Part shown: one piece after another, positions 1,867-32,000 of the stretch
How the letters are laid out: every line of letters begins with the position of its first letter
How positions within the stretch are numbered: the first letter of the stretch is position 1
Origin: Candidatus Saccharimonadota bacterium
Lineage (GTDB): Bacteria > Patescibacteriota > Gracilibacteria > BD1-5 > UBA6164
Direction: 5' to 3'
Assembly (NCBI GenBank): GCA_965227835.1
Contig: OZ245768.1
Location: 900,001-932,000, forward strand
DNA length: 32,000 nt
Notes under the pieces: generated by a model
Seen by the model: the letters and a program-made list of their open reading frames with translations, nothing else
Told to the model about the DNA's origin: nothing
Database searches by the model: none
Translations under genes and position numbers: made by a program

Positions 1867-1884
1867 CTCCAAAGTAAGAAATAT

Positions 1885-1918: not shown

Positions 1919-1938
1919 AAAAGAGTTTAAAAAAAGAT

Positions 1939-1966: not shown

Positions 1967-2009
1967 CCATTTTAATGTTTTTCTAAATTTACTAAAAGAG
2001 GAGGATAAA

Positions 2010-9700: not shown

Positions 9701-10222
9701 AGTAAGATAGTCATTGAAAAACTCTTTTCTTACTACTTCTACATCAAATCTTGATACTAGATCTTCAAAATCACTTACAGTTTTATCCAAATATTTCTCT
9801 GGAGTTTTGGTTTTTTCTCACTCTCATAGCAAAAAACTATATCTTTTAGGATTTGAAGTTTGAGTTTCTCACCATGATTTTTTTAGAGTCAGGAGTGATA
9901 ATCTCCAAGAAGGGCTATGATCACTATAAAATACTATAAGTGCATTTTCTACTCACTTACTCTCCATAATCTTGAAAGCATCTCTTGTAAGAGTAATTCT
10001 TGGATCATTTTTTGATCTCTGCTTGATTTCAAAAATACTTACTTCTTTATCCAAAATGATTTTTCATAACTCAAAGCAACTATCCTTTTCAAAAAACACC
10101 GTTTTTCTATCAATTTGGATTAGTTTGATATCTTCATCAAAATTATCTCCAAATAATCTTACTCTTAGATAATTTAAAAAATCTCTTCTATTTTCTAAAT
10201 TATATGCTTTATTAAATATCAT
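6761..10222 (-). CDS. type IIG restriction endonuclease / gamma-class N6-adenine DNA methyltransferase fusion (1153 aa)
   Basis: Track ORFs 6761..7003, 8792..9163 and 9596..9790 share one frame and join when TGA = Gly. N-terminal candidate PD-(D/E)xK motif (ILDKEVSIFEIKQ). Also VPFLNGGLF, FGAFYTPREIV (motif X), LDPAIGSGAF (motif I), YGVDI, RLRFWLSLV, IGNPPYIG (motif IV), RGKRKGDMLEMYATPISNVPI and a C-terminal YGLSEEEIKIVE. Confidence 0.92.
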
Positions 10223-10234
10223 TTACTCTTAAAA

Positions 10235-10453
10235 TTACATACTAATTACATATTACTTTGGCTTAAGATAAGGAAAATTATTTTAATAAAAGTCTTTCAG
10301 TTACATACCGGTTACATAGATTATGCCCAATATGGAACATATATTACACTTATTGTGTTTAAAATTCTATATTGTGTTAATTTTTTTCGCTATTTGGTGG
10401 TTATATTATATTAAATATACATCTTTTATTGTGTTTAGAATTCTTTATTGTGT
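10235..10453 (-). promoter_or_regulatory. repeat-dense upstream region of the type IIG gene (4x TTACATA, 4x TATTGTGT)
   Basis: TTACATA at 10235, 10246, 10301 and 10312, as pairs spaced 11 bp. TATTGTGT at 10351, 10370, 10427 and 10446, as pairs spaced 19 bp within two 28-nt direct repeats (10350-10377 and 10427-10454). Confidence 0.4.
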
Positions 10454-12109: not shown

Positions 12110-12120
12110 ATTAAAATAGT

Positions 12121-15100
12121 TTATTTATTAAATTCCTCACTGATTATTAAATCAAGTGTTTCTTCGTTGAAGTTTTTTGATACTTCTAATATTCATTTCA
12201 GATATTCTTCAGTAATCAATTCTTTAATTAGTTCAGCATCTTTTTGCCAAGTAGTTTTTGTGATTTTTCTTATTTTCTTCATATATACAAGAGGAAGACC
12301 TCAAAGTTTAATTACCTCTTTTAAAAGATTGAAATAATTATCATCAGTTTCATTGTATATATCTTCTGCATTTTCATATGCTTTTTTTTGCTGAATATTC
12401 ATATTAGAATCAGCATGAGGGTTTTTTATTTCTTTTTTCAATTTTTCATATGATTTATAAAAACCTTTTGTAACTTCTTTAGGTTCTTCTGTAAGTTCTG
12501 ATTTAAATAAGTTAAATGCTTCCACTAAACTCAAAGGTTCAACTTGAGATGTTTTCTCATTATAGAAGTAAAAAATTAAGTTGGATTTTTTCTTAGCAAA
12601 AACTAATACTCATTTTACTCATTTATTTATGGTTCTTAAAACTCTTGTCCTCCTAGGAATTTTTTCAATTTTATCTAATATTTCAGGATCGATTTCTTGA
12701 GCTTTCTTAAAGTCATTTAAAAACTCACTATCCCAAGATTTATCTTCATTTAAAGTTGTATCTTCTAAAATAGCTTTTTTATAAAATGATCATACCTCCT
12801 CATCTCATGACAGTGTTTTTACATCTACTCATAAGACTGTAGCTATCATTTTTATCTTTAATTTTGATATTTTCTTAATATTTACATGTTCTTCTCAAAC
12901 TATTGATGGAAAATAATTATATACATATAAATTATCAAATACTTTTTTATTAATTCTGTTTATTCTTCAAATTCTTTGAATTACTTTTGTTGGATTATAT
13001 GGTATATCATAATTTATAATCACTCATGCTCTATGAAGATTATATCATTCTGATATAGCATCAGTTCAAAGCAATATATCATAATCATTTTTTTGTTTAC
13101 TTTCTTCAACTCATGCATCAAAATTTAGCCTAACTTGTTCTTTTAGAGTATCTGTTTTATGTTTTCAAGTAACAACAAGTACTCTATCGTTTAATTTCTC
13201 TTGTAAATATAGGATAGTATCTGCAAACATAGAAAAAACTATTATTTTCCTCGTCTCATCTTCCTGTCTAATTTCTTGTATTTTTTCTACAAAAGTATCT
13301 AGTTTCGGATCGTTTTTTATGCTTTCCCACTTTTGTAATAAATCATTTAAAAACTTTCTATCATATTTTAAATCATCTATAAATTTTTGACTTAAGTCTG
13401 ACTTTGGAATTAAAATTCAATCTTTTGACTCGATTAATTCTTTCACCTTCTCTACACTTTCTGATATTTCTAAATCTTCATCAAATACATCATCAATATT
13501 TGGCAGTCCTCATTTTTTAATTACAGGAACTCCATGAAGTAATTCTAAATAGTTAAAAATATTATCAATAGAATTAACAATTGATGTAAGAGTCTTTTTA
13601 AATGAATATATCGAGCTTTCAAATCTAGATACTAATAATCTCCTTATAAAAGATGGCATATTTTTTTGTCTTCATTCTAAAAGTGCATACTCATATCATA
13701 GTGTTTCTTCAATTTCTTTTTGATATTTATCTGGATTATTCAAATATGTTAATATTTTATATCTTGCTCACTTAAAATAAACAGGATTTCACTGATTATC
13801 TGCATCTACCAGTTGTTCCAAAGTTTCAGTATAAAGATCTTCTATATCATCCAATGGAAAGTTTAATTCTTTTGGATCTGATACATTTGCAAATTCATAT
13901 CACTCTTTTTCTAAATCTTCTCTATAGCTATCTATATTTTGTAAATCTACTCTTGATCTTCTAACGACCACGGGTCATATAATTTGCCTTATTTCTTCAG
14001 AGAGTTTTTTCACTTTTTTTAATGTCTCTTCTTCGCTCGTTAATGAATTTTTTCCATCTTTTCTTATTTCCAAATATTTATTTTGTAACTCTCCAAAATC
14101 ATTTATTAATCATTTTTTTGTATGAATAGTTGGATTTGCTGGTATTTGAAATAACTTTATAAGGTTAAATATATCTTCAGGTTTATTATTAAAAGGAGTA
14201 GCAGATAATAAAATAACTTTTTTTCAATGACATATTTGGTGTAAATTTCAATAATCTATTGTTTCAGCATTTCTATATTTATGTGCTTCATCTATTAATA
14301 CTACTTCAGCCTTATGAATATCATGATTATCATATAAAAATGCCTTATCTATACTTCATGAACTAAAGATTTCAGCCTTTAAATTAAAATCTTTTACATA
14401 TTCCTTCCACAAATCTATTAAATGAGGAGGACATATAATAAGTGCTTTTTTATCTATATTTCAAAGTAAAGTTGATCAAATAATTGATTTTCATAATCAT
14501 ACTACATCAGCAATTATTACTCAGTTATGCTCATTAATTATTTTTAATCCTTTTTTTATTGCATCAACTTGATATTCTAGGTTAGAAAATTTCTCTTTTG
14601 TTAAATCTTTGGGTGTTTTTATTCACTGCTCATCTTTAAAATATTCATATAATAGTCTGATATAACAATAATATGGTTTTGTAAGTTTTAACCATGTTTC
14701 TTGCTTTAGCATTTTAACAACATCATCATTGTCTCATCAATTAGTTATTGAAATTGAATAATTCTTCCAAATATCCTCAAACATACCTTGAGCCATATTA
14801 TAATTATCTGGAACTCTATCTATAGTGTTATATTCAAATCTTCACGATAGTCATGAATATGTTAAATTGCTTGATCATGATATTACCGTTCAAGGAAGTG
14901 TTCATCACATTGAAAAATCTCCATCATGAGAAAAAAGATACAGTTTTGTATGGTTTGGATCTATAGTTCTTCTAATTTCTAAGCTTCCGTCTATAATCTT
15001 ATCTATATATATTTGAACAGCTTCTGATCATTCTAAATTATCAAGAGTTTCTGTTTTATTAAAAATATCTTTTAGTTGTTTTATTGTATCTGATTTAGTA

Positions 15101-15336
15101 GCAGTTTTAAATCATACTTCATTTACTTTTATAGCAGAATTAACAATTGATATTTCTGCATTCATACCAATAAGTATTCTAACTTTTTTATCTATTAGCT
15201 CCTTATATATCTCTTTAAAACCTGAAAAATAAAAAAAACCAACTAAAATATCCATTTTTGAAGTAGCTGGTAATATTTTTGTTATTATTTCAGATAATAG
15301 TACATCAGTATTTGTTATTGCTTTATAAAAAGACAT
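12121..15336 (-). CDS. PLD (HKD) nuclease domain fused to SF2 (SNF2/DEAH-like) helicase (1071 aa)
   Basis: DILVGFFYFSGF, HTKLYLFSHD (HxK..D), GSSNLTYSG, then helicase motifs ADVVGLGKS (I), LIDEAHKYRN (II), LLSATPFNN (III), LLGTDAISEGYNLH (V) and QRIGRINR (VI). Track ORFs 15112..15336 and 12301..12534 are in frame. Confidence 0.92.
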
Positions 15337-15356
15337 TTTCCCTTTAAAATTTAAAT

Positions 15357-15385
15357 ATTATAATAACCTAGTTTTTACGGGTAAA
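15357..15385 (-). promoter_or_regulatory. candidate promoter of the defence-like operon (TTTACC-N17-TATAAT)
   Basis: TATAAT on the minus strand at 15362-15357. The -35 overlaps the palindrome TTTTTAC-GG-GTAAAAA (15372-15387). Confidence 0.3.
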
Positions 15386-15411: not shown

Positions 15412-15458
15412 CTAGCAAAAAACAAATAAAAAGAAAAGTTTTTCTAAACTTTTCTTTT
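15412..15458 (-). terminator. candidate terminator after znuB
   Basis: A 13-bp A/T-rich stem AAAAGAAAAGTTT / AAACTTTTCTTTT (15429-15441 / 15446-15458), followed on the minus strand by a U-rich tract. The stem overlaps the znuB stop codon. Confidence 0.4.
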
Positions 15459-16244
15459 TATTACTAAACTCAAAACAAAAAAAGTAATCAAAATCAAAAC
15501 AATAGTAGCTCAACTAGAAGTGTCTAAAAAATATGAAATAAAAAGACCTAAAATCACACCAAGTACTGATAAAAAACTAGAAATTAAAAAAGATAGCTTT
15601 AAATTAGGTGAAATAATTTTTGAAATATTAGCAGGAATAACTAAAAAAGCTCAAATAAGAAGTATTCAAAATATTTTTATACTTATAGCTATAAACAAAG
15701 ATAAAAATATCAAAAAAACTAAGTTGTAAATATCAACATTCAATCATCTTGATTTAGCCAAATCCTCATTTATTATTACACTGATAAATTTTCTTCAAAA
15801 AAAGAAGAAAAATATAGATAAGAAAAATAGTAAAAAAGACAAAATTAATATATCAAAAGAAGATATAAAAAGAATAGATCAAAATAAAAAACTTTTTATA
15901 TCCAGAGTCAAATTGCCAAGAAATCAAGTGATAAAAATTCATCCAGATATTCAAATTTGTGCTATTATTTCTTTTGTAGACTCTTTTGTAATAAACTTGG
16001 TTTTTTCTATAAAAAAAATAGAAAAACTTCAAATTATTCAAAACAAAAAAGAAAATAAATAATAATTTCAATTAAAAAGCAAAGAAACAGCAATTCATAA
16101 AAACAAAAAATTAGATATAGAATGAGTTACATTTGCCTCCTTTCTCATAACAATAAATATACCTAAAAAAGAAGCAATAATAGATATTAAAACTCATCAA
16201 ATAATTGCTTTTTGAAAAAATGGATATTGTAGTATTTCAAACAT
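15444..16244 (-). CDS. znuB: ABC-3 family metal (zinc) transporter permease (266 aa)
   Basis: GGVLISIIASFLGIFIVMRKEA, LFGSILFISSFDI, INEDLAKSRGLNV and GILLIGAFLVIPA are typical ZnuB/ABC-3 blocks. Confidence 0.85.
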
Positions 16245-16337
16245 AATATAAATTTATTTATTTTTCTGCCAAAATGTTAATTTTTTCGGGATTCCCTTAA
16301 GATTCTAAATAAAAGATAATTCTTTTATTTTTGGGGG

Positions 16338-16495
16338 CAACAGAGAGCTTTAGCTCTTTGAACAAAGAAATTTCCCAGACAAGGGGTTTTAACCCCTTGC
16401 AAAATTCAACCCTTTGAACAAAGCAATTTACAGTCAACAGAGGGCTTTAGCTTTCTGATTTCATGTCCTTTTCAACAGAGAGCTTTAGCTCTTTG
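16338..16495. repeat. cluster of REP-like GC-rich hairpin repeats inside the znuC-znuB spacer
   Basis: CAACAGAG[AG]GCTTTAGCT[CT]T[TC]TG occurs at 16338-16360, 16435-16457 and 16473-16495. CTTTGAACAAAG occurs at 16356-16367 and 16412-16423. CAAGGGG-TTTTAA-CCCCTTG lies at 16380-16399. Confidence 0.6.
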
Positions 16496-16591
16496 CTATT
16501 TTAGGAAGTTTTTATTTGCTTGTTATTTATCCTATATACAGTAAAACAATTTGCACCTTAGTTTACTATAGAAGATCTCTTCAAAATATAA

Positions 16592-17326
16592 TTAGTTTTT
16601 ACAATTCTTATGGGAGCTATGAGAATTAGGATTGTGTTTGTAAGGTGAAATATAGTTTCAAAAAATATTTTTAATAATAGGATTAGATTCAATTTCACTA
16701 GGGGTTCAATGACAACAAAAATTGTTATCATGAAGACAAACTACTTTATCACAGTTGCTATAGACCAAATTTATATTATGAGAAACTAGTATTATAGATA
16801 TATGTGGAAAAATATCTTTAACCTCTTTTATAATTTTATAAAAAACTTCTTCTCAAACTATATCAATTCAAGCTGTAGGTTCATCAAGTAAAATTAAATC
16901 TGGATTTTTTAAAAGAGAAGAAACTACCAAAATTTTTTGAAGTTGTCATCAGCTCAATTTATCAACTCTTTTGTTTACAAGATCTTTAGAATTAAATTTA
17001 GATAAAAGATTTTCTATATCCTCCCTATTTACCTTTTCGTTATATACTTTTATAAATTCACTTACCAAAATAGGAAAAGATTCATCTAAATTAATCTTTT
17101 GAGGTACATATGAAAGTTTTTTATAATTTCTAAATATATTTCAAGAAATTGGTTTTTGTATCCCTGCTATTACTTTTAGTAAACTTGATTTTCAAGCACC
17201 ATTTAGTCATATAATACTAAGTATTTCTCAAGAAAAAACGGAAAAACTTATGTTTTTTAAAACATAAGTTTTTTTGTTATCATAAGATAAATTGATGTTT
17301 TTTAATTTTAATACTTCCCTATTCAT
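16592..17326 (-). CDS. znuC: ABC transporter ATP-binding protein (244 aa)
   Basis: Walker A GLNGAGKSS (two Gly = TGA), signature LSGGQLQK, Walker B LILLDEPTAGID. The start ATG overlaps the znuA stop (ATGAATAG). Confidence 0.9.
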
Positions 17327-18422
17327 ATATTTTTTCAAGTGCTTTTAAATTGTTACTATAATTATTTATATATCAATTTTTAGAATCATCACTTCAAAAA
17401 GGATTTAATATATCAACTTCCAAACTATAATCCAAAGCAAGTTTATCTAAATTGGAATCTTTAAATTGAGGTTCTTTATAAAAATTCTTTACTCAGTGTT
17501 TTGTTATTTCATCTATAATTTCTTTCATTTCTAAAGAATTTGGATCACTTAAAACATTTGTTCTAAATACAAGTTTTTTACTACTATCTATATTTAGTTC
17601 TGAAAAAAGATAGGAGTAAGCATCATGGAAAACTATAAACTCAGATTGAGTTTTTCAACTGATTCTATCCAAAAAGCTTTGCTTAATTCATAGTAATTCC
17701 TTTTCTAGAGATTCGTAGTTATTAGAAAAATAATTAGAATTTTGTGGCTGGATTTCTGAAAGTTTAGATTCTATATTTTTTGCAATAAGTAAAGCATTTT
17801 CTGCAGAAGTCCAAACATGTGGATCAAGTTCATGTCAATTTTCATAGTGGTCATCTTGATGTTCATCTTTATAATCATTTTCATTATGTTCTTCTCAATG
17901 GTGATCATCGTCATGAGTTTCACTATGTTTTTTATAATTTTTTTCTAAGTGGTTTTCCTCATCATGATTTTTATCTTCGTGATTTTCCTCATCATGATGT
18001 TCGTCTTCGTGGTGTTCATCTTCGTGATGATGATGATCATCTGATCATTCAATCATTTCTATTCATTTAGTAGTAATTAAAACATTTTTATCTTCCAAAG
18101 CTTTATCTAAAAATCAGTCAATATGGTCATATCCAAGTGAAAGTATAAGGTAAGATTCTTGAATTTGTATCATTTGACTCGGTTTTAAATCAAATCCATG
18201 AGGGCTAACTCATGCTGGAACAAGTGATTTTGCTTCTACATAATCTCAACCAATATAATTAGTAATAGAAGCAAGTGGAATAATAGAAGTAGTAATTTGT
18301 AATTTTTCAGCTTGTTTTTCAATATTAGTATTTTTTTGTGAGATTTGTTTTGTATTTTGGTTATTACAAGAAACAAGTAAAAAAGATAGCACAAGTATAA
18401 TAAATAAAGATATTTTTTTCAT
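17319..18422 (-). CDS. znuA: zinc ABC transporter substrate-binding lipoprotein with His/Asp/Glu-rich loop (367 aa)
   Basis: Lipobox LLVSC. SPHGFDLKPSQ and DPHVWTS metal-ligand blocks. Long loop DDHHHHEDEHHEDEHHDEENHEDKNHDEENH..., whose antisense is track ORF 17819..18070. Confidence 0.9.
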
Positions 18423-18535
18423 AGAAATATTTTTTTAAATAATAAAGTATATATTAAGAAAACCCTGAAAAATTCATTTAAAAGAAAAAAAATCTTCAGC
18501 CTTTCCTTAATAACCTTCAAAGAAGATATGAAAAA

Positions 18536-19489
18536 TTAACATCTATCAAAAAATACACTGTTTAATAGAGTATTTTGCATTTCCTGTTTATCTATATTTT
18601 TTCAAATAAAAACAATTCTTGATAATTTGTCTTTTTTATCCCATCTTTCATCAACTATGAGGGTAAAACTTGATCATGCTTTTTGAATTATATATCTATC
18701 TTTTGGATAATCTTTAAAATGTATAAATCATTTTACCCTAAAGACATCATCAGGTAAATCTCATAAAAATTGTTTCATATTTTCAAGTGTATAACATGGT
18801 TCTTCTGTTTTAAAAAAATACTCAGATATTCAATTGTCATGATGATGGTGATGATGATGTAGTTTTTTTTCTATTTCATCGTTCATTTCAAAACTTGTAG
18901 TATCAAGTATATAGTTCAAATCAACTTTACCATAATTTGTCTCAATAATTACACAATATTTATTTAGTTCTTTTATTGTTTTTTTTATTTGATCTATTTC
19001 TTCTTTTGAAACTCAATCTACTTTGTTTAATATCGCAAAATTGGCAAATTCAATTTGTTCAAAGGTAGTAGCTAGTTCTTTCATAAAATTTGATCTAAAA
19101 TTTATAGCATCTATCAAACATACTATACTATCAAGTTTTACTCTTCATCAAAAATCAGTCATAAAAAAAGTTTGAGCTATTGGAAGAGGTTCACTCATAC
19201 CTGAAGCTTCAATTATCAAATAATCAAAATCTTTTCAGCTATCAAGAAGTTTTTTTACTCCCTCTATAAAATCTCATCTAACAGTACAACACATACATCA
19301 ATTTTGTATTTCAATAATTTCTTGTGTACTTTTTTCAATTAATTCTCAATCAATGGATTCTTCTCAAAATTCATTTTCTATTACTGCTATTTTATATCCC
19401 TGCTTATTTTTCAAAATATGGTTAAGAAGAGAAGTTTTTCCTGATCATAAAAATCAAGTTAATATTGTTACTGGTATTATTTTTTGCAT
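18536..19489 (-). CDS. COG0523 (CobW/ZigA/YjiA-type) metallochaperone GTPase (317 aa)
   Basis: PVTILTGFLGSGKTSLLNHIL P-loop, GCMCCT (CxCC), His7 tract (KLHHHHHHHD). Confidence 0.9.
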
Positions 19490-19502
19490 AATCAAAGTTA
19501 TA

Positions 19503-20717
19503 TTAATTTTCTATTATTTGCCATTTGGGCAAAGGATCTGAAAAATTTTTCCAAATTTCTGGATTTTCCATTTCTTCTTTTGTGAGTAATGCATAATCAA
19601 GAAATCAAATTATTTCATCATTATTCATATCTACTCAAATAACTACTATTTCATTTCTTCTATCTCAAAAAGGTTTATCTCAAAATTCTTTTTCATATTC
19701 TTCATTTTGTTCTTTGGAATAAGAAATTCTCTCTTGTTTTGAAAAACTTCACATCCATCTTCACATTGGGTCTATTTTGATACTTCATCAGGCAAGACTC
19801 CAATTTCAAGCTATATCATTTCTAGAAGCTAACCAAAAAACACCTTTGGATCTGACAACTCAAGCCCAATTTTTATTAACAGCTTGCATAAATCTTTCAG
19901 GATGAAATGGTTTTTCTTTTTTATAAATAAATGAACTTATTCAATATTCTTCAGTTTCTGGAGTATGATTTATATGCCCTCATGATTCTAATTCTTTTAT
20001 CCATAAAGGACTAGAACTTGCCTTATCAAAATCAAAAAGTCAGGTATCAACTACATTTTTTATATCTATTTTTGAATTTATTGTTTCAATTATTTTTGCT
20101 TCACTTTGAAGTGATTTAATAATTCATTTTATATAATGAAGTTCCTCTTTTGAAACAAGATCACATTTATTTAAAATAATTATGTTACAAAACTCAATTT
20201 GCTCTACAATTAGATTTACAAGTGGTCTATCATCATTTTCATCAATTCACATTTTTATGTCAGCAAGTGTTTTATCACTTCCAAATTGATTTATAAAATT
20301 ATTGGCATCCACTACTGTTACCATGGTATCAAGATATGCCCATTTTCATAAATCAATACCTGTTTGCTCATCTACATAAGTAAATGTTTGTGCTACAGGA
20401 ACTGGTTCAGATATTCAAGATGACTCAATGATAAGAGCATCATATTTTCACTCCTTAGCTAATTTTTCCACTTCTATAAGCAAATCTTCTCTCAAGGTAC
20501 AACACACACATCAATTATCTAACTCTACAAGTTTTTCTTCAGTTTGGGATAAGTTATTTTCATTTTTTACTATATTTGCATCAATATTTACCTCTCACAT
20601 ATCATTTACTATAAGAGCAACTTTTTTATCTCATCTTTGACTCAAAATATGATTTAAAAGAGTTGTCTTGCCAGCTCATAAAAATCAAGATAAGACTGTT
20701 ACAGGGATTTTTTTCAT
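19503..20717 (-). CDS. COG0523 metallochaperone GTPase, long paralogue (404 aa)
   Basis: PVTVLSGFLGAGKTTLLNHIL (two Gly = TGA), GCVCCT, ILNKCDL. Confidence 0.9.
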
Positions 20718-20734
20718 CTTTTATTTTAAATAAA

Positions 20735-21130
20735 TTATAAACAATTCTTACAAGTTCAGACTACTCATATACTATGATTTTTAATCTCAAATCAGATTTT
20801 TTTTGCTTCTATAAATATTTTATCACAAATATATTTTGATTCAAAGCTAATTATAGATTCACATTTTTCACACCTCATATGTTCATGATGATTTTTTTCA
20901 TCATTAAATTCATAAGTCATAATTTTTTCTCAAATATCTACTTTTCTAATAACTCATAAATCTAAAAACAAGTTTAAAGTTCTAAAAATAGATGCTCTTC
21001 AAATATTTTTAAAGTTTTTAATTATATCATTGTATGTAAAAATATGCCTTGTTTTTAAAAAATCAAAAATAGCTATTCTTTCGGGAGTAACTCTATTTTT
21101 ATTTTGTTTTAATATGTTTTCTATTTTCAT
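20735..21130 (-). CDS. zur: Fur-family metalloregulator, probably Zur (131 aa)
   Basis: IGRASIFRTLNLFLDLGVI wHTH, HHEHMRCEKC....GTCKNC (two CxxC). It heads the zinc operon. Confidence 0.8.
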
Positions 21131-21160
21131 ATAAATGAGATTAAGTCTCAATAAAAAAGG

Positions 21161-21187
21161 ATTATATAATTTTTTTTATTTAGTCAA
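21161..21187 (-). promoter_or_regulatory. candidate zur-operon promoter (TTGACT-N15-TATAAT)
   Basis: Minus-strand TTGACT at 21187-21182 and TATAAT at 21166-21161. Confidence 0.35.
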
Positions 21188-21345: not shown

Positions 21346-21744
21346 ATGAAAGCCACAGAAATAAACCAGAAAACGTATGTACATTTTCTATCTCCCGGAT
21401 CATTTTTCCCTGAAGAATCAGAGATAGAGGTGACTGATAGAGATGTAGATACATTGGAAATCCCTAATGGCTGTTTCGCATTTAACTTTTTTGATATTGT
21501 CGAGGTTACATGTCAAGATGATATGGGGAAAGTGATTAAAACACATAGCAATCCCCTCAATGAATCTTCTAGGTATTATGTAAATGGTACAATTATGACT
21601 AAGGAAGAAATTGGTACTCAGGAAGGTTTTGATTCAATACTTTTTCGTAATATGGAATCAAACGGTTGGGAAGAAATTGTAAAGTGCAAGACTGGTAACT
21701 TCCAGCCATTTAATGAAGGTGATAGTATTGTTGTTAGAAAATAA
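21346..21744 (+). CDS. hypothetical protein (132 aa), compositional outlier without TGA codons
   Basis: Intact ORF in the standard-code track. SD AAAGGAG. All nine Gly are GGN. Locally higher G+C. No family recognised. Confidence 0.8.
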   Translation: MKATEINQKTYVHFLSPGSFFPEESEIEVTDRDVDTLEIPNGCFAFNFFDIVEVTCQDDMGKVIKTHSNPLNESSRYYVNGTIMTKEEIGTQEGFDSILFRNMESNGWEEIVKCKTGNFQPFNEGDSIVVRK

Positions 21745-21765: not shown

Positions 21766-21800
21766 TAGCCCTCTCTCTATAATGTGAGAGGGCTATTTTA
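21766..21800 (+). terminator. rho-independent terminator
   Basis: TAGCCCTCTC (21766-21775) pairs with GAGAGGGCTA (21786-21795), followed by a T-rich tail. Confidence 0.7.
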
Positions 21801-21905: not shown

Positions 21906-22703
21906 TACAATTAAAAAGTTATGTAAAAAATAATATTTTTAAATGGCAATAAATTTTATAAATAAAAAAATATGGAAAATAATAGCTTAAATATAAAGGA
22001 AAGAAACCTACTACCTAAAGATAGATTAAAAACTATTCTAAGTCATGAAGATTTCAGGGATTATGAAAGAATGTTTGAAGAATCAGAAGGTGTCATGTCT
22101 TGGCATAAATTGGAAAAATGTACTAAATTCTATAAAGATAGAAGATTGAAAGGTATAGAGTGGAAAGGAGACTTAAACTTAAAACGAAAAAACATAACAA
22201 ATTTAGAAAAATTAACAAAAGTTCAGGGAGATTTAGATTTAGAATGAACATCTATAACAAGCTTAGAAAATTTGAAAAAAGTTTGAGGAAATTTGAATTT
22301 GAGGTGAACATTTATAACAAAATTAGAAAATTTGGAAACAGTTTTATGACGGTTAAGTCTAGAATGAACACCTATATCAAGTTTATGAAAGCTGACAAAA
22401 GTTTTAGGGTCGTTGAATTTAAGATGAACTTCTTTAACAAATTTAGGAAATTTAGAAATAGTTTGAGATTTTATAGCTCTACACAGAGCATCCATAACAG
22501 ATTTATGAAAGCTAAAAGAAGTTAGAGGAGACTTAAATTTAAACTATACAAAAATAAAAAGCTTAGGAAATGTAACAAAAATCCAAGGGAAACTAATTTT
22601 AAGTTTAAGTTATATAAAAGATTTATGAAAATTAAAAAAAATTTGAGGAAATTTAGATTTAAGATGAATAAACAGAAGGGATGTAGAAAATATGATAAAG
22701 GAA

Positions 22704-23321
22704 GTAAATATCTACCAGTAGAACTGGTAGCTTTAAATGGAAGCCCCTAGAAGGGGCTAAAATAGTTTTTACCAGTTTAAATCTAACTGATTTCCATCAA
22801 TGGTTTTATCCTTATGTTGCTGATGTTGAACATAATTTTTTATCATATCCAAGTCAAGTCAAACTGTACTTACATAGTATCATCTACTCCAGAAATTCTT
22901 CGAGTACAGTCATTTCTTCTTACTATGTTTGTTATGAAGTATTATTGCACTCTTTCATTTCAATCTTCACAGAATTTCTGCAACAGAGTATTTTGGAGAT
23001 ATCCTCAAAACGAGATGAACATGATCTATCGTTATATTTCATTTTAATATCTCAAAATCATATCTCTTTGCAAGTTCATGAAATGTGTCTCGTATATCTT
23101 TTCTAACTGATTGAAAAAGTATTTTTTTTCGGTACTTTGGTACCACCACTATGTGGTAAGTGCAGTCCCAATTCACATGGGACTGCTTTGCGTATTTGTG
23201 GGACATATCTTTAAAAAGTTATTCCCCTCCTAGGTGCTTCCTAGAAGATTATACACAACTACCGGAACGGTAAAACCTCCACTACTCGCACCAGCAGAGC
23301 TGGTGGTTTAGTGTTGGATTA
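22704..23321 (-). mobile_element. IS200/IS605-family element (tnpA only), copy 1
   Basis: By eye the 618 bp match copy 2, and the shared antisense track ORFs are identical. No terminal inverted repeats and no target duplication. Subterminal hairpins CTACCAGTAGAACTGGTAG, AGCCCCTAGAAGGGGCT and CACCAGCAGAGCTGGTG. Confidence 0.9.
22769..23206 (-). CDS. tnpA: IS200-type Y1 (HUH) transposase (145 aa)
   Basis: YHIVVVPKYRKKIL, DHVHLVL (HUH), LKGKSA and FWSRGYYVSTVG (catalytic Tyr). Five in-frame TGA fall at Gly positions. Confidence 0.92.
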
Positions 23322-23813
23322 ATTAAAGATAAAAAAATATATATATGAGGTGAAATTAATTATGATTGAAAAGACATTTATCAAGAATTTTCAACTTTCT
23401 TTAAATACTTGTGAAAATTTGATGATCTAAATTTAGATAATTCAAAAATAGAGGAAAGTAAAGAAAAATTTATCAAAAAATACTGAACTAGTAAAACGAA
23501 AAGATCAGATTCAGTTAAAAAAGATTTAAATTTAACTGCAAACATACTTTATTACTTTTTTGTTGATAATTTTATAAAAGAATGAGATAAAATTAAAAAA
23601 AGAATAAATAAGTTAAAGAAAAGTAATAAAGATGAAGAAAGTATAAAAAAAGAAAAATTAAATTTAAAGTTAGCATTATATAATAAGCTAGAAGAAAAAT
23701 TTAATGAAATAAAGTATTACTTTTGAGAAGATATTAAAAAAAGATTAGAAGATGAATTTAAAAAGGAAATGACAAAGAATAGTGATGATAATTAAATTTT
23801 TATTTAAAAAATA

Positions 23814-25142
23814 ATGGTAGATAAAAACAACATTTTCAAAGAAAATTTAACTCCTAAAGATAGATTAAAAACTATTCTAAGTCATGAAGATTTCAAGGAT
23901 TATGAAAGAATGGTTGAAGAATCTTACGGTAAAATATCTTGGGAGAAATTGGAAGAATATAGTGAATTTGATGAAAATCAAAACTTGAAAGGTATATATT
24001 GGAAAGGTGATTTAGATTTAAGTTCAACTAAAATCACAAGCCTAGGTAATTTAAATAAAGTTTGAGGAGATTTAGATTTAAGATGGGTTCCTATAACAAG
24101 CTTAGGTAGTTTAAATAAAATTTGAGGAAATTTAAATTTAATATGAACTCCTATAAAAAGCTTAAGCAATTTAAATGAAGTTTGAGGAGATTTATATTTA
24201 TATTGAACTCCTTTAACAAGCCTAAGTAATTTAAATGAAGTTTGAGGAGATTTAAATTTAAGATTAACTCCTATAACAAATTTAGGAGAATTACAAAAAG
24301 TTTGAGGAAGTTTAGGGTTAAGATGAACCCCTTTAACAAGCCTAAGTAATTTAAATGAAGTTTGAGGAGATTTATATTTAAGCTGAACTTCTATAACAAA
24401 TTTAGGAGAATTACAAAAAGTTTGAGGAGAATTACATTTAAGCTGAACTCCTTTAATAAGCCTAAGTAATTTAAATGAAGTTTGAGGAGATTTATACTTA
24501 GGCTGAACTTCTATAACAAATTTAGGAGAATTAAGGAAAGTTTGAGGAGATTTAGATTTAAGCTGAACTCCTTTAATAAGCCTAAGTAATTTAAATGAAG
24601 TTTGAGGAGATTTATATTTAATATGATTATCTAAAAAAAATATAAGAAATATAAAAAAAGAAATAAGAAATAAAAAAATACATATATGAAAAGAAATTAT
24701 ATGCTATGATAGGAGTAATATTTATCAAGAATTTTCAATTTTCTTTGACTACTTGTGAGAATTTAATGATGATGAAAATTTAGATAATTCAAAAATAGAA
24801 GAAAGTAAAGAAAAATTTATCGAAAAATACTGATACGGTAGTGCTAAAAGATCAGATTCAGTTAAAAAAGATTTAAACTTAATTGCAAATATATTTTACT
24901 ATTTTATTGTTGATAACTTCATAGAAGAATGAGAAAAAATTAAAAAAATAATAAAAGAATTAAAAAAAAGTAATAAAAATGAAAAAAGTATAAAAGAAGA
25001 AAAATTAAATTTAAGGTTAAAATTACATAATAAGCTAGAAGAAAAATTTAATGAAATAAGGCATTACTTTTGAGAAGATATTAAAAAAAGATTAGAAGAT
25101 GAATTTAAAAAGGAAATGACAAAGAATAGTGATGATAATTAA
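23814..25142 (+). CDS. LRR-like family paralogue 2 (442 aa; about 10 repeat units)
   Basis: MVDKNN... N-module (track ORF 23814..24065), followed in frame by 60-bp repeats and the C-module. Ends ..EFKKEMTKNSDDN-TAA. Confidence 0.85.
24006..24626 (+). repeat. 60-bp (20-codon) tandem coding repeat, about 10.3 units
   Basis: Exact 60-nt phasing. Unit consensus is G-[DNE]-L-x-L-x-G-T-[PS]-[IL]-[TI]-[SN]-L-[GS]-[NE]-L-x-[KE]-V-G, with the flanking Gly usually TGA. Confidence 0.9.
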
Positions 25143-25160
25143 ATTTTTATTTAAAAAATA

Positions 25161-26126
25161 ATGGTAGATAAAAATAACATTCTAGAAGAAGAATTAACAT
25201 CTAAAGATAGATTAAAAGAAATTTTAAGTCCTGAAGATTTCAAAGACTATGAAAGAATGATCGAAGAATCTAACGGTGAAATATCTTGGGAGAAATTAGA
25301 AAAATATAGTGAGTTTGATGAAAATCAAAACCTGATAGGGATATTTTGGGAGGATAATTTGGATTTAGATCAAACTGAAATAACAAGCTTGTGAAAGATA
25401 AAAGAAGTTTGAGGTTCTCTATGTTTAAGATTTACTAACATAATAAGCCTAGGAGATTTAGAAAAAGTTTGAAGATGGTTAAATTTAAGCTGAACCCCTA
25501 TAACAAACTTAGGAAATTTAAAAAAAGTCTGAGGATCTCTAAATTTATCTTTTACTAATCTAATAAGCTTAGGAAATTTAGAATATATTTGATTAAATTT
25601 AGATTTAAGATTAGTCCCAAAAAAAAATATAATAAATATAAGAAAAGAAATAAAAAATAAAAAAATACATATATGATGAGAAATCATATATGACTGAAAA
25701 TATATTTATGAAAAATTTTCAACTTTCTTTAACTACTTATGAGAATTTAATAATGATGAAAGTTTGGATAATTCGAAAATAGAGGAAAGTAAAAAAAAGT
25801 TTATAAATAAGTACTGATACGGTAGTGCTAAAAGATCAGATTCAGTTAAAAAAGATTTAAACTTAATTGCAAATATATTTTACTATTTTATTGTTGATAA
25901 CTTCATAGAAGAATGAGAAAAAATTAAAAAAATAATAAAAGAATTAAAAAAAAGTAATAAAAATGAAAAAAGTATAAAAGAAGAAAAATTAAATTTAAGG
26001 TTAACATTACATAATAAGCTAGAAGAAAAATTTAGTGAAATAAATAATTACTTTTGAGAAGATATTAAAAAAAGATTAGAAGATGAATTTAAAAAGGAAA
26101 TGGAAGGGTATGGTAACCATAAATAA
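25161..26126 (+). CDS. LRR-like family paralogue 3 (321 aa; about 4 units)
   Basis: Same three-module architecture. The C-module variant ends ..EFKKEMEGYGNHK-TAA. Confidence 0.85.
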
Positions 26127-26144
26127 TTTTTTATTTAAAAATTA

Positions 26145-28415
26145 ATGGTAAATAAAAATAACATTCTTGAAGAAAAATTAACACCTAAAGATAGACTAAG
26201 AATTATTCTAACTCCTGAAGATTTCAAGGACTATGAAAGAATGGTTGAAGAATCAGAAGGTATTATTTCTTGGGAGAAATTGGAAGAATATAGTGAGTTT
26301 GATGAAAATCAAAACTTGATAGGTATATATTGGAAAGGTGATTTAGATTTAAGTTCAACTAAAATCACAAGCCTAGGTAATTTAAATAAAGTTTGAGGAG
26401 ATTTAGATTTAAGATGGGTTCCTATAACAAGCTTAGGTAGTTTAAATAAAATTTGAGGAAATTTAAATTTAATATGAACTCCTATAAAAAGCTTAAGCAA
26501 TTTAAATGAAGTTTGAGGAGATTTAGATTTATATTGAACTCCTTTAACAAGCCTAAGTAATTTAAATGAAGTTTGAGGAGATTTAAATTTAAGATTAACT
26601 CCTATAACAAATTTAGGAGAATTACAAAAAGTTTGAGGAGATTTAGATTTATATTGAACACCTTTAACAAGCCTAAGTAATTTAAATGAAGTTTGAGGAG
26701 ATTTATATTTAAGCTGAACTTCTATAACAAATTTAGGAGAATTACAAAAAGTTTGAGGAGAATTACATTTAAGCTGAACTCCTTTAATAAGCCTAAGTAA
26801 TTTAAATGAAGTTTGAGGAAATTTACGTTTAAGTCAAACTCCAATAGAAAGCCTAGGAAATTTAAATAAAGTTTGAGGAAATTTAAAGTTAGGTCTAACT
26901 CCAATAGAAAGCCTAGGAAATTTAAATGAAGTTTGAGGAAATTTAGATTTAGATCAAACTGATATAACAAGCTTAGGAAATTTAAATAAAGTTTGAGGAA
27001 ATTTGAATTTAAGATGATTATCTAGAAAAAATATAATAAATATAAGAAAAGAAATAAGAAATAAAAAAATACATATATGAGGTGAAATTAATTACGATTG
27101 AGAAGATATTTATGAAGAATTTTCAACTTTCTTTGATTATTTATGAAAGTTTGATGATGATGCAAATTTAGATAATTCAAAAATAGAAAAAGAAAAACAG
27201 GAATTTATCAAAAAATACTGAACCAATAAAACGAAAAAATCAGATTCAGTAAAAAAAGATTTAAATTTAACTGCAAACATATTTTTTTACTTTTTGGTAG
27301 ATAATTTTATAGAAGAATGAGATAAAACTAAAAATCAGATAGAAGAATTAAAAAAAAGTAGTAAAGATAAAAAAAGTATAAAAAAAGAAAAACTAAATTT
27401 AAAGTTAGCATTAGATAATAAGATAGAAGAAAAATTTAGTGAAATAAGTCATTACTTTTGAGAAGAAATAAAAAAAAGATTAGAAGATGAATTTAAAAGA
27501 GAAATGATGATAGATAAAAATAATATTCCCGAAGAAAAGTTAACACCTAAAGATAGATTAAAGAAAATTCTAACTCCTGAAGATTTCAAAAATTATGAAA
27601 GAATGGTTAAAGAATCTTACGGTAGAATAACTTGGAGAAGATTAGAGGAATATAGTGAATTTGATGAAAATCAAAAGTTGAAAGGTATATATCGGAAAAA
27701 TAATTTCAATTTATATTGAATTAAAATAACAAGCTTAGGAAATTTAAAATATGTTTGAGGAGAGTTAAATTTAAGTTGGAGCTCTATAACAAGCTTAGGT
27801 AATTTAGAAGAAGTTTGAGAAGACTTATATTTAAGGTGAGTTCCTATAACAAGCTTAGGTAATTTAAAAAAAGTTTGAGGAGAGTTAAATTTAAAATTAG
27901 TACCAAGAAAAAATATAATAAATATAAGAAAAGAAATAAGAAATAAAAAAATACATATATGAAAAGAAATTATATGCTATGATAGGAGTAATATTTATCA
28001 AGAATTTTCAACTTTCTTTAACTACTTATGAGAATTTAATAATGATGAAAGTTTGGATAATTCGAAAATAGAGGAAAGTAAAAAAAAGTTTATAAATAAG
28101 TACTGATACGGTAGTGCTAAAAGATCAGATTCAGTTAAAAAAGATTTAAACTTAATTGCAAATATATTTTACTATTTTATTGTTGATAACTTCATAGAAG
28201 AATGAGAAAAAATTAAAAAAATAATAAAAGAATTAAAAAAAAGTAATAAAAATGAAAAAAGTATAAAAGAAGAAAAATTAAATTTAAGGTTAACATTACA
28301 TAATAAGCTAGAAGAAAAATTTAGTGAAATAAATAATTACTTTTGAGAAGATATTAAAAAAAGATTAGAAGATGAATTTAAAAAGGAAATGGAAGGGTAT
28401 GGTAACCATAAATAA
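26145..28415 (+). CDS. LRR-like family paralogues 4+5 fused in frame (756 aa)
   Basis: A complete paralogue (about 11 units plus C-module) runs without a stop into a second N-module at 27504 (..EFKREM-MIDKNN..). Both halves are in frame (26145 and 27504 are both 0 mod 3). Ends TAA 28413-28415. Confidence 0.7.
26337..27017 (+). repeat. 60-bp tandem coding repeat, about 11.3 units
   Basis: Same unit as 24006-24626. Confidence 0.9.
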
Positions 28416-28433
28416 TTTTTTATTTAAAAATTA

Positions 28434-29399
28434 ATGGTAAATAAAAATAACATTCTTGAAGAAAAATTAACACCTAAAGATAGACTAAAAGAAATTTTAA
28501 GTCCTGAAGATTTCAAGGATTATGAAAGAATGGTTGAAGAATCTAACAATAAGATATCTTGGGAAAAATTGGAAGAATATAGTGAATTTGACGAAAATTC
28601 AAATTTGAAAGGCATATATTGGATAGATGATTTAATTTTATATTCAACTTCAATAACAAGCTTAGGGAAATTTGAAGAAGTTTGAGGAAATTTATTTTTG
28701 TGTGAAACTCCAATAGAAAGCCTAGGAAATTTAAAATATGTTTGAGGAAATTTAGAATTAATATTAATTTCTATAACAAGTCTAGGAAATCTAAAGGAAG
28801 TTTGAGGAAGTTTAAATTTAGGTCAAACTCCTATAACAAGTCTAGGAAATCTAAAAGAAGTTTGAGGATTTTTAATTTTAAGATGAATATCAAGAAAAAA
28901 CATAATAAATATAAGAAAAGAAATAAGAAATAAAAAAATACATATATGAAATAAAATTATATATTATTGAGAAGGTATTTATGAAGAATTTTCAATTTTC
29001 TTTAACTACTTGTGAGAATTTAATGATGATTCAAATTTAGATAATTCAGAAATAGAAGAAGAAAAACAGGAATTTATCGAAAAATACTGATACGGTAGTG
29101 CTAAAAGATCAGATTCAGTAAAAAAAGACTTAAATTTAACTGCAAACATACTTTATTACTTTTTTGTTGATAATTTTATAAAAGAATGAGATAAAATTAA
29201 AAAAAGAATAAAGAAGCTAAAGAAAAGTAATAAAGATGAAGAAAGGATAAAAAAAGAAAAATTAAATTTAAAGTTAGCATTATATAATAAGCTAGAAGAA
29301 AAATTTAATGAAATAAATAATTACTTTTGAAGAGATATTAAAAAAAGATTAGAGGATGAATTTGAAAAGGAAATGGAAGGGTATGGTAACCATAAATAA
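28434..29399 (+). CDS. LRR-like family paralogue 6 (321 aa; about 4 units)
   Basis: Translated through by hand with no TAA/TAG until 29397-29399. Confidence 0.85.
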
Positions 29400-29417
29400 C
29401 TTTTTATTTAAAAATTA

Positions 29418-30665
29418 ATGGTAGATAAAAATAACATTCTTGAAGAAAAATTAACACCTAAAGATAAACTAAAAATTATTCTAAATCCTGAAGATTTCAA
29501 GGATTATGAAAGAATGGTTGAAGAATCAGAAGGTATTATTTCTTGGGAGAAATTGGAAGAATATAGTGAGTTTGATGAAAATCAAAACTTGAAAGGTATA
29601 TATTGGAAAGGTGATTTAGATTTAAGTTCAACTAAAATCACAAGCTTAGGTAAATTAAAATATGTTTGAGGAGATTTAGATTTAAGATGGGTTCCTATAA
29701 CAAGCTTAGGTAGTTTAAATAAAATTTGAGGAAATTTAAATTTAATATGAACTCCTATAAAAAGCTTAAGCAATTTAAATGAAGTTTGAGGAGATTTATA
29801 TTTATATTGAACTCCTTTAACAAGCCTAAGTAATTTAAATGAAGTTTGAGGAGATTTAAATTTAAGATTAACTCCTATAACAAATTTAGGAGAATTACAA
29901 AAAGTTTGAGGAAGTTTAGGGTTAAGATGAACCCCTTTAACAAGCCTAAGTAATTTAAATGAAGTTTGAGGAGAATTACATTTAAGCTGAACTCCTTTAA
30001 TAAGCCTAAGTAATTTAAATGAAGTTTGAGGAAATTTATACTTAGGCTGAACTTCTATAACAAATTTAGGAGAATTAAGGAAAGTTTGAGGAGATTTATA
30101 TTTAATATGATTATCTAAAAAAAATATAATAAATATAAGAAAAGAAATAAAAAATAAAAAAATACATATATGATGAGAAATCATATATGACTGAAAATAT
30201 ATTTATGAAAAATTTTCAATTTTCTTTGACTACTTGTGAGAATTTAATGATGATGAAAATTTAGATAATTCAAAAATAGAAAAAGAAAAACAGGAATTTA
30301 TCGAAAAATACTGATACAGTAGTGCTAAAAGATCAGATTCAGTTAAAAAAGATTTAAATTTAATTGCAAATATATTTTACTATTTTATTGTTGATAACTT
30401 CATAGAAGAATGAGAAAAAATTAAAAAAATAATAAAAGAATTAAAAAAAAGTAATAAAAATGAAAAAAGTATAAAAGAAGAAAAATTAAATTTAAGGTTA
30501 AAATTACATAATAAGCTAGAAGAAAAATTTAATGAAATAAATCATTACTTTTGAGAAGATATTAAAAAAAGATTAGAAGATGAATTTAAAATGGAAATGA
30601 CAAAGAATAGTGATGATAGTAAATATCTACCAGTAGAACTGGTAGCTTTAAATGGAAGCCCCTAG
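29418..30665 (+). CDS. LRR-like family paralogue 7 (415 aa; about 8 units), 3' end rewritten by IS insertion
   Basis: The family terminus ..SDDN-stop is replaced by ..SDD-SKYLPVELVALNGSP-TAG, which is read from IS sequence. Confidence 0.8.
29610..30110 (+). repeat. 60-bp tandem coding repeat, about 8.3 units
   Basis: Same unit as 24006-24626. It lacks exactly two units (120 bp) relative to paralogue 2. Confidence 0.9.
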
Positions 30666-31236
30666 AAGGGGCTAAAATAGTTTTTACCAGTTTAAATCTA
30701 ACTGATTTCCATCAATGGTTTTATCCTTATGTTGCTGATGTTGAACATAATTTTTTATCATATCCAAGTCAAGTCAAACTGTACTTACATAGTATCATCT
30801 ACTCCAGAAATTCTTCGAGTACAGTCATTTCTTCTTACTATGTTTGTTATGAAGTATTATTGCACTCTTTCATTTCAATCTTCACAGAATTTCTGCAACA
30901 GAGTATTTTGGAGATATCCTCAAAACGAGATGAACATGATCTATCGTTATATTTCATTTTAATATCTCAAAATCATATCTCTTTGCAAGTTCATGAAATG
31001 TGTCTCGTATATCTTTTCTAACTGATTGAAAAAGTATTTTTTTTCGGTACTTTGGTACCACCACTATGTGGTAAGTGCAGTCCCAATTCACATGGGACTG
31101 CTTTGCGTATTTGTGGGACATATCTTTAAAAAGTTATTCCCCTCCTAGGTGCTTCCTAGAAGATTATACACAACTACCGGAACGGTAAAACCTCCACTAC
31201 TCGCACCAGCAGAGCTGGTGGTTTAGTGTTGGATTA
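30619..31236 (-). mobile_element. IS200/IS605-family element, copy 2
   Basis: Offset of 7915 bp from copy 1 in the same orientation. Intact paralogue junctions (e.g. 25134-25150 GATGATA/ATTAAATTT) serve as the empty site. Confidence 0.9.
30684..31121 (-). CDS. tnpA: IS200-type Y1 transposase (145 aa), copy 2
   Basis: Same sequence as 22769..23206, shifted by 7915 bp. Confidence 0.92.
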
Positions 31237-31259
31237 ATTAAATTTTTATTTAAAAAATA

Positions 31260-31679
31260 ATGGTAGATAAAAATAACATTCTTGAAGAAAAATTAACACC
31301 TAAAGATAGACTAAGAATTATTCTAACTCCTGAAGATTTCAAGGACTATGAAAGAATGGTTGAAGAATCTTACGGTAAAATATCTTGGGAGAAATTGGAA
31401 GAATATAGTGAATTTGATGAAAATCAAAACTTGAAAGGTATATATTGGAAGGGGAATTTAGATTTAAGTTGAACTTCTATAACAAGCTTAGGGAAATTAA
31501 AATATGTTTGAGGATATTTAGATTTAAAATGGACACCTATAACCGATTTAGAATATTTAGAGAAAATTTGAGGATATTTAGACCTAGAATCAACTTACAT
31601 AAAAGATTTATGAGAATTAAAAGAAGTTTGGGGAAGTTTAAATTTAGCTTGAACTAAAGGGACCTCTGCAAAAAGATAG
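31260..31679 (+). pseudogene. LRR-like family paralogue 8, truncated (139 aa; N-module plus about 3 units, no C-module)
   Basis: The repeat pattern breaks at about 31659 (..SLNLAGTK/GTSAKR-TAG), immediately before the IS5-type element. Confidence 0.6.
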
Positions 31680-32000
31680 ATTTAAATTACAAAAATATAA
31701 TAAAAAGATTAAAATATGATAAATATTTTAATTTTTTTTTAATGATTATGTCACCATTTAAAGAACAACAAACATTTTTGAATTATTTCCAAAATGAGTT
31801 ATGAATTACAAGAACAGAAAAGTTTCTAACAAAATTAGATAAAGTAGTCCCATGGGAATCAATATCAAATAAAATTAATTTATCTAGAGAAATATCAGAT
31901 TGATGAGTTTGAAGACCAAGAATGGAAATACAAAAAATGTTAAAAATACTATTTCTTCAATGACTATATGGATTATCAGATCCGGAAATAGAAGATCAAA
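31659..32000 (+). mobile_element. IS5/IS1182-type insertion sequence, left part (continues off the window)
   Basis: The candidate terminal sequence GGGACCTCTGCAAAAAG starts where the LRR reading pattern is lost. The transposase gene starts 83 bp later. Confidence 0.45.
31742..32000 (+). CDS. IS5/IS1182-family transposase, N-terminal DUF772-like part (partial)
   Basis: ..GGVGRPRMEIQKMLKILFLQGLYGLSDPEIEDQ.. matches the InsH-type N-terminal block (GRP...LLQ.LY.LSD). It has in-frame TGA = Gly. Confidence 0.75.

Follow-up and report, generated by a model that had tools for sequence, protein, structure and literature searches.

A stretch of 32,000 nucleotides from the genome of a Candidatus Saccharimonadota bacterium placed within the Gracilibacteria (assembly GCA_965227835.1, contig OZ245768.1, positions 900,001 to 932,000), the whole of which is referred to here as the window, contains on its + strand, at 21972-31679, a tandem array of genes for leucine-rich repeat (LRR) proteins. 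Window positions are used throughout, and the array is read with translation table 25, in which TGA specifies glycine. Translation and repeat parsing give eight head-to-tail N-modules, each at the start of a unit that consists of an acidic helical N-module (63 aa), 3.5-11.5 copies of a 20-aa LRR and a C-terminal sequence of about 168 aa comprising a basic C-cap and a helical Lys/Glu-rich tail. The original prediction for this DNA had proposed a tandem three-part family at this position, with repeat number varying on a constant scaffold and only the N-modules apparent under the standard code. In these respects it is borne out by the translation, the repeat parsing and the regular 18-nt spacers, table 11 having given merely the N-modules together with spurious open reading frames (ORFs). 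Its count of eight paralogues is right for the units but not for separate genes, there being seven gene bodies, with two of the units (u4a and u4b) fused in frame.

The array and its units

The number of LRR copies is 8.5 in u1, 10.5 in u2, 4.5 in u3, 11.5 in u4a, 3.5 in u4b, 4.5 in u5, 8.5 in u6 and at least 3.5 in u7. All units are on the + strand. Intact are u2 (23814-25142, 442 aa; N-module 23814-24002, LRRs 24003-24632, cap and C-module 24633-25142 with the tail ending MTKNSDDN), u3 (25161-26126, 321 aa; N-module 25161-25349, LRRs 25350-25619, cap and C-module 25620-26126 with the tail ending MEGYGNHK) and u5 (28434-29399, 321 aa; N-module 28434-28622, LRRs 28623-28892, cap and C-module 28893-29399). 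The database counterparts are P0001 for u3, where W stands for each TGA codon, and P0003 for u5. The 756-aa product of u4 (26145-28415) is that of two complete units joined in frame at ..EFKREM/MIDKNN.., where one tail, a stop codon and an 18-nt spacer have been lost, so that u4a (26145-27506) is tailless and u4b (27507-28415) provides the tail, ending MEGYGNHK. The other units are interrupted in ways dealt with below. The 5′ part of u1 (21972-22703) has a divergent N-module (21972-22163), its LRRs (22164-22673) and the first part of the C-cap, and its 3′ part (23322-23795) the remaining C-cap and the helical C-module, with the tail ending MTKNSDDN and 85-89% nucleotide identity to other C-modules. 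In u6 (29418-30618, database protein P0002) the N-module is at 29418-29606, the LRRs at 29607-30116 and the cap and C-module from 30117. The truncated u7 (31260-31658, P0209) retains its N-module and about 3.5 LRRs.

A 60-bp period is present in every unit and higher-order periods of 120 and 180 bp in the long arrays (Tandem Repeats Finder, which for u2 reports a period of 60/120 and 10.4 copies). Spacers of 18 nt lie on the + strand at 23796-23813, 25143-25160, 26127-26144, 28416-28433, 29400-29417 and 31242-31259. The five intact spacers are all of this length and nearly identical (ATTTTTATTTAAAAAATA at 25143-25160), and start context and spacer are alike in all units. None of this layout, be it periods, spacers or units, can be chance. 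ORFs of up to 286 codons (table 25) also run antisense through the LRR arrays, on the - strand at 23924-24703, 26231-27091 and 29504-30202. As genes these are rejected, their low-complexity products, rich in Phe, Leu, Ile and Ser, being by-products of the repeats.

Decoding of TGA as glycine

Once TGA is read as a sense codon, the ORFs of at least 100 codons in the window, whose G+C content is 24.7%, rise from a total of 3,496 to 14,384 residues. A zinc-uptake cluster, described with the other genes of the window, serves as an internal control for the glycine reading. There, TGA encodes the P-loop glycines (GFLGSGKT) in two CobW-type GTPases and, in a ZnuC-like ATPase, those of the Walker A and LSGGQ motifs. 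It is likewise found at the PCHR..GGLGGY glycines of Ogt. Because TGA sits at invariant glycines of housekeeping proteins, the organism uses code 25 (TGA = Gly), a code which to our knowledge is known only from Gracilibacteria and Absconditabacteria. In the ORFs outside the array TGA is the commonest glycine codon (255 versus 78 for GGN). Position 1 of the repeat is Gly in 621 of 837 repeats of LRR homologues encoded in the standard code, and Trp in the public translations of recoded genomes.

Two TGA-encoded glycines per repeat had been anticipated, but the average over 51 repeats is about 1.3, with TGA at position 1 in 38, at position 8 in 25 and at position 15 in five. In the Gly-Gly pair that each repeat carries (e.g. 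in 24003-24632) the first Gly is encoded by TGA in these 38 and by GGN in no repeat, the second has GGN in 44 and TGA in one, and at position 8 TGA (25) alternates with TGG (5). The codon regularity of the pair was probably inherited from an amplified ancestral unit. The expectation that the family would be missed by annotation was also too strong, as public collections already list its proteins, hypothetical and without a name, with TGA translated as Trp. The practical cost of wrong-code gene calls is that Trp is put at structural glycines of every repeat, with poorer domain detection and structure prediction as the result.

Anatomy of the proteins

The LRR consensus, GGxLxLxGTxITSLGNLxxV, is predicted to form a right-handed solenoid with 20 residues per turn. 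Among 51 full 20-aa repeats, L4 is present in 49, L6 in all 51, T9 in 41, I/L11 and L14 in all, L17 in 48 and V/I20 again in all. This hydrophobic repeat pattern, together with a strand predicted for each turn and caps predicted at both ends, is that expected of an LRR solenoid. For AlphaFold2, u3 was entered in its public translation, where Trp replaces each TGA-encoded glycine (a substitution that weakens the models), together with a five-sequence alignment. The model gives residues 10-177 as one confident body, with a predicted local distance difference test score (pLDDT) of about 85-96, in which three N-terminal helices and a strand are packed on the solenoid, followed by periodic short strands and then a helix and a strand. 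As the model packs helices and strand onto the solenoid, the N-module would be an elaborate N-cap. At the other end the first ~27 residues of what had been defined earlier as the C-module (..KKNIINIRKEIRNKKIHIGGEIIYDG) are the C-cap, whose motif, S..EIR..V.VGG.IY, also ends unrelated proteins with the same LRR class. The remaining ~140 C-terminal residues, the fast-evolving tail, appear in the full model as long helices of low confidence, and a ten-sequence model of the C-part alone is helical with a mean pLDDT of 53, for which reason it was kept out of the fold search. The three-part design originally proposed thus holds for N-module and LRRs but not for the extent of the C-module, and its supposedly coiled-coil tail is, at low confidence, predicted to be helical, the coiled coil as such not being upheld.

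The isoelectric points of N-module, cap and tail are 4.3, 10 and 8.5, respectively, and the N-terminus is acidic and hydrophilic. No signal peptide, lipobox, anchor or membrane segment was detected in the units, the highest 19-residue hydropathy being about 1.0. By prediction the proteins are soluble and cytosolic, and their portrayal as surface proteins that bind the host is not sustained, given that signal peptide, lipobox and membrane segment are all lacking.

The LRR class and the orphan modules

The LRRs of u2 match FlrP of Vibrio (PDB 8Z5U; phmmer E 9.1e-15, 57.7 bits over 162 residues), and a profile had 2,033 matches among 1.84 billion representative proteins, nearly all in the LRR only. 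To the class belong, among others, multidomain proteins of giant size, fusions of the PcfJ-like and SprT-like kinds, and small proteins of phages. On the phage side the matches include Edwardsiella phage Edno5, EBPR podovirus 1 and an uncultured Caudovirales protein. The Pfam family Recep_L_domain (PF01030) is matched by u1 (24.5 bits against a cut-off of 21.8) and not by u2 or u3, and many LRR-only homologues carry a precomputed PF01030 match. Apart from this borderline case, nothing was found for the units in Pfam, PHROGs or NCBIfam. PADLOC yielded no match at E <=0.01 for u2, u3, the ORF upstream of the array or a further family member, and no tRNA or Rfam matches were obtained. The class is therefore widespread and barely characterised, FlrP being its one characterised member, and that only recently, in keeping with the supposition that the repeats do not come from a well-characterised family of assigned function.

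Profile searches with N-module and C-module alignments against PDB sequences gave no match, and on present sequence comparison both modules are orphans without known relatives. Foldseek with the full u3 model found nothing significant in PDB, the best being the LRRs of SspH1, IpaH and YopM at E 0.045 or worse; among viral models there was an LRR match only, that to the uncultured Caudovirales protein named above (E 7.6e-4).

Relatives in the same genome and in other recoded organisms

The 1.49-Mb genome has at least 14 N-modules. Paralogues beyond the array are P0005, P0062, P0064, P0083 and P0210, and P0063 is one further gene, on an ENA contig. In P0083 the N-module is joined almost directly to cap and C-module, essentially without LRR turns, and in P0062 two complete units are once more fused in frame. 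These two show that repeat loss and unit fusion recur in the genome. The range for the family is 0.5-11.5 turns.

In other genomes a wider family is represented by Trp-rich public translations that have the same N-module signature, ..ISWEKL..GIYW, followed by a 40-aa double LRR unit, a cap, in some cases another LRR block, and a helical tail of another type with a conserved extreme C-terminus (..ESFGIKL-COOH). In GCA_054004595.1 six family genes occur in a row, with a solitary one on another contig, and in metagenome Ga0256838 head-to-tail pairs are present on four contigs. N-module, repeats and helical C-part hence co-occur in one ORF, and in tandem, in at least two other TGA-recoded organisms, as the three-part proposal would have it. 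Pattern scans of viral contigs, like those of the species genomes considered below, used few exact peptide patterns and found no member, and both are weak negatives for that reason. In the sequence collections searched, the family is seen only in TGA-recoded genomes. Literature searches on Absconditabacteria or Gracilibacteria together with leucine-rich repeats turned up no account of it.

Recombination and selection

Identity between u4a and u6 is 96.8% in the N-module and 87% in the C-module, and between u3 and u4b it is, conversely, 97.4% in the C-module and 84.6% in the N-module. From this conflict between the similarities of the two ends, paralogues exchange segments by recombination.

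Ratios of nonsynonymous to synonymous substitution (dN/dS; Nei-Gojobori with the table-25 code) are 0.13-0.3 for the N-module, 0.27 for cap and C-module, and 0.27 for LRR scaffold positions, all of which are under purifying selection. With values this low for N, C and scaffold, the genes are functional now or were so recently. At the strand-face positions x3, x5, x7 and x8, which were chosen on structural grounds, the ratio is 2.25, suggesting diversification of the binding face at exposed strand positions.

Insertion elements and erosion of the array

Two copies of a 618-bp insertion sequence (IS) of the IS200 type are present on the - strand, copy 1 at 22704-23321 (tnpA 22769-23206, -; subterminal hairpins 22712-22730 and 23289-23305) and copy 2 at 30619-31236 (tnpA 30684-31121, -; also with subterminal hairpins). 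They are 100% identical to each other, which implies very recent transposition within the array. The tnpA product matches Pfam Y1_Tnp (E 9e-35). Neither copy has duplicated its target, and each sits 5′ of ATTAAA (read on the transposase strand, 3′ of TTTAAT). The Y1 transposase, the subterminal hairpins, the lack of terminal inverted repeats and target duplication, and the sequence-specific target place the element in the IS200/IS605 family. Copy 1 splits u1 within the LRR C-cap, the halves rejoining in frame (..MIKE/IKDKKIYIGGE..). Copy 2 removes the last codon and stop of u6, whose read-through ORF now ends at 30665. A third element, of the IS5/DUF772 type (Pfam DUF772 on ORF 31742-32000), extends from about 31659 to the end of the window and cuts u7 after about 3.5 repeats. 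P0004 of the same genome looks like the matching 3′ remainder of u7, beyond the end of the window, and P0210 is an intact near-copy of u7 with a different, strongly basic tail.

This copy of the array is under erosion by IS insertion, and with three of the eight units disrupted and one pair fused it could be asked whether the whole is a decaying, non-functional array of pseudogenes kept only by recombination. That is highly improbable, considering that ORFs of up to 756 codons have stayed open, that dN/dS on N and C is low, that the IS copies are identical and hence recent arrivals, and that the design is conserved in other organisms.

Expression and the question of switching

No terminator-like hairpins were found between the units. 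No invertible promoter was found either, the inverted repeats upstream being weak and AT-rich, and IS transposases apart, no recombinase was found in the window. The longest simple-sequence tracts are A8-A9. The absence of terminators, invertible promoter, recombinase and long simple tract suggests co-expression rather than one-at-a-time switching, and on the same grounds a contingency locus, as originally envisaged, is not present in the strict sense. A promoter scan was uninformative in number (72 found versus 70 expected).

Tracts of A8-A9 are located at LRR/cap junctions (24633, 25619 and 30117) and also at 27350, 27470 and others, and tracts of at least eight reach 1.46 per kb in the array, about double their density elsewhere in the window (0.74 per kb). 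They are too short for phase variation to be called, though a frameshift there would give an LRR-only protein. Their placement at the junctions is one of the features that Sec-exported surface adhesins encoded by a phase-variable contingency locus would account for, along with variable repeat number in a tandem array; LRR expansions have, moreover, been tied to adherence in oral Saccharibacteria (10.1101/2020.04.29.069278). Such adhesins are improbable here all the same. The N-terminus is acidic and hydrophilic, signal peptide, lipobox and anchor are lacking, no invertible element, recombinase or inter-unit terminator is at hand, and the A tracts, besides being short, are of a kind common in a 25% GC genome.

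Other genes of the window

Directly upstream of the array a 132-aa ORF without TGA (21346-21744, +) is followed by a terminator-like hairpin at 21771-21792. It has no Pfam or PADLOC match and no exact match in the public protein collection. Next comes a zinc-uptake cluster (15444-21175, -), which encodes a Zur-like regulator, the two CobW-type GTPases, of which one contains a His7 run, ZnuC-like and ZnuB-like proteins, and a ZnuA-like binding protein whose long loop is rich in His, Asp and Glu. Beyond it, at 6761-15357 on the - strand, is a restriction/defence-like trio. One gene encodes a 1153-aa fusion of an Eco57I/MmeI-type methyltransferase with a TaqI-like specificity domain, another a 554-aa protein with an SLFN/AlbA_2 domain, and the remaining one a 1071-aa fusion of PLD nuclease and SNF2 helicase. 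At 742-2486 (+) there is a second, secreted tandem family, three paralogues of about 155-170 aa with an N-terminal signal peptide (MKTLKNIFLTSILLIFSLNANA..), conserved cysteines and a conserved leader before each copy. The first copy has no Pfam match.

The trio is about 6.6 kb from the array, and the array itself is interspersed with IS elements, a setting that brings to mind a defence repertoire. The LRR proteins would then be cytoplasmic sensors of phage or mobile-element proteins, with the helical tail signalling through oligomerisation. Predicted cytosolic location, the diversifying pattern on the binding face and an LRR class held in common with proteins of phages and conjugative elements (PcfJ and SprT fusions, phage LRR proteins) are pertinent. 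Yet the zinc-uptake operon intervenes between array and restriction-like genes, the neighbours differ at every related locus, PADLOC has no match, and neither in nor beside the proteins is there a nuclease, TIR, NTPase or other effector domain. Sensors of this kind are an unlikely, though not fanciful, answer.

What the array may do

The explanation that we consider somewhat better than even is that the array is a recombining repertoire of soluble, putative binding proteins aimed at proteins of a host, of prey or of phage. It would amount to a germline repertoire of protein-binding modules, in which unequal crossing-over between the 60- or 120-bp repeats, together with gene conversion, would diversify both length and binding face. 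All units are probably co-transcribed, and several specificities would thus be available at once without switching. The ligands are probably non-self proteins, the first choice being those of a host or prey bacterium and the second those of phage. The LRR proteins may function as YopM-like scaffolds after contact-dependent transfer, or may act on imported host material, and the helical tail would mediate oligomerisation or docking. The leaning toward host or prey derives from the YopM-like design, the expansion in very small host-dependent genomes and the conserved extreme C-terminus. Phage or mobile-element targets come next, given that this LRR class also occurs in such elements and that the restriction-like genes are about 6.6 kb away. 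Of what was originally read into the locus, the three-part family and its variable repeat number are retained, and contingency and surface host binding are given up; recombination in the array and the fast-evolving binding face fit a repertoire of binding specificities.

Several points weigh against a binding repertoire. The window has no secretion system, effector domain or defence partner, and matches in PADLOC, PHROGs and NCBIfam are lacking. Between the C-modules of the two subfamilies no homology could be demonstrated (hhalign probability 1%). No member turned up when 185,579 GTDB species genomes were scanned twice with few exact peptide patterns, which suggests that the family is patchy or that the patterns were too strict. 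With three of the eight units IS-damaged, constraint on part of the array may have been relaxed. Finally, the dN/dS values pool non-independent paralogue pairs, equate repeat register with orthology and depend on few synonymous sites (S = 47).

The favoured specific version of the binding repertoire, possible but clearly short of an even chance, is that the proteins are translocated effectors, injected or released onto a host or prey bacterium, for instance via the patescibacterial type IV secretion system or some other contact-dependent route, and acting there as YopM-like scaffolds. The design is YopM-like in its N-terminal helical cap, 20-aa LRRs of variable number and non-catalytic tail, and the best fold matches, non-significant as they are, are to the LRRs of SspH1, IpaH and YopM. 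The conserved ..ESFGIKL-COOH of the wider family could be a recognition signal, and the family is expanded in tiny genomes from lineages known in culture as epibiotic parasites or predators. Type IV secretion systems have been reported in Patescibacteria, Gracilibacteria included, which counts in favour. In Gracilibacteria, though, VirB6 is reported to be absent and other components to be unlinked, which counts against (10.1101/2025.01.22.634366 for both). Also adverse are the lack of secretion genes in the window or at related loci and of a recognisable secretion signal in the proteins. Larger claims are doubtful: that this would be the first effector family delivered into prey by epibiotic predators, or else a bacterial array of cytosolic LRR receptors whose binding face is diversified much as in eukaryotic LRR immune receptors.

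Next to nothing is known of the way in which Gracilibacteria and Absconditabacteria recognise and exploit their bacterial hosts, and very few proteins have been put forward for that role. With at least 14 units in a 1.49-Mb genome, recurrence in other recoded organisms and the signature of a diversifying binding surface on a conserved scaffold, the family provides a concrete, clonable candidate set that is suited to pull-downs and localisation in the few available co-cultures.

Comparison with known systems

The closest characterised protein, FlrP, is an LRR protein of the Vibrio polar flagellar motor found in 2025 (PDB 8Z5U/8Z5W; bioRxiv 10.64898/2025.12.04.692373). It is a periplasmic β-solenoid LRR protein that carries a Sec signal peptide and binds to both the rod and the MS ring of the flagellum (10.64898/2025.12.04.692373). 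The window proteins have the same 20-residue LRR class (pattern GGxLxLxxTxIxxLxxxLxV), but FlrP is a single-domain protein of 199 aa, whereas they lack a signal and have orphan N- and C-modules and many variable paralogues. Since FlrP is the sole characterised protein of the class, endogenous structural adaptors that brace an envelope machine of the cell itself, such as pili, come to mind. For the array this is very improbable: its proteins do not have the export signal that takes FlrP to the periplasm, variation of binding face and length among at least 14 paralogues is unexpected for a structural adaptor, no machine genes are nearby, and flagellar genes in particular are absent from the window.

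A different resemblance is to the type III effectors YopM, IpaH and SspH of Yersinia, Shigella and Salmonella, with which the short LRRs (20-22 aa), the N-terminal helical cap and the variable repeat number are shared; YopM, in addition, has no catalytic domain. Sequence matches of the YopM/IpaH/SspH type are weak (E 0.046-0.18; for SspH1 E 0.05). The LPX-type consensus and NEL ligase domain of that group are absent from the window proteins (no Pfam NEL match), and we know of no type III system in these lineages.

With the PcfJ and SprT fusions and the small phage LRR proteins the likeness extends to both the LRR class and the C-cap motif. These phage and conjugative-element proteins differ in having other N-terminal domains, no helical tail, the standard code and no paralogue arrays. 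At the level of the LRR fold only, Listeria internalins and the LRR proteins of Saccharibacteria clade T1 are comparable in that there are many LRR paralogues per small genome. Internalins have signal peptides, wall anchors and 22-residue repeats. For the clade T1 proteins, of oral Saccharibacteria, a role in adherence has been proposed (10.1101/2020.04.29.069278). Set beside these systems, neither the expansion of LRR paralogues in host-dependent bacteria nor the repeat class is novel, and what is new is the orphan N- and C-modules, the confinement to TGA-recoded genomes, the recombining tandem layout and the pattern of selection.

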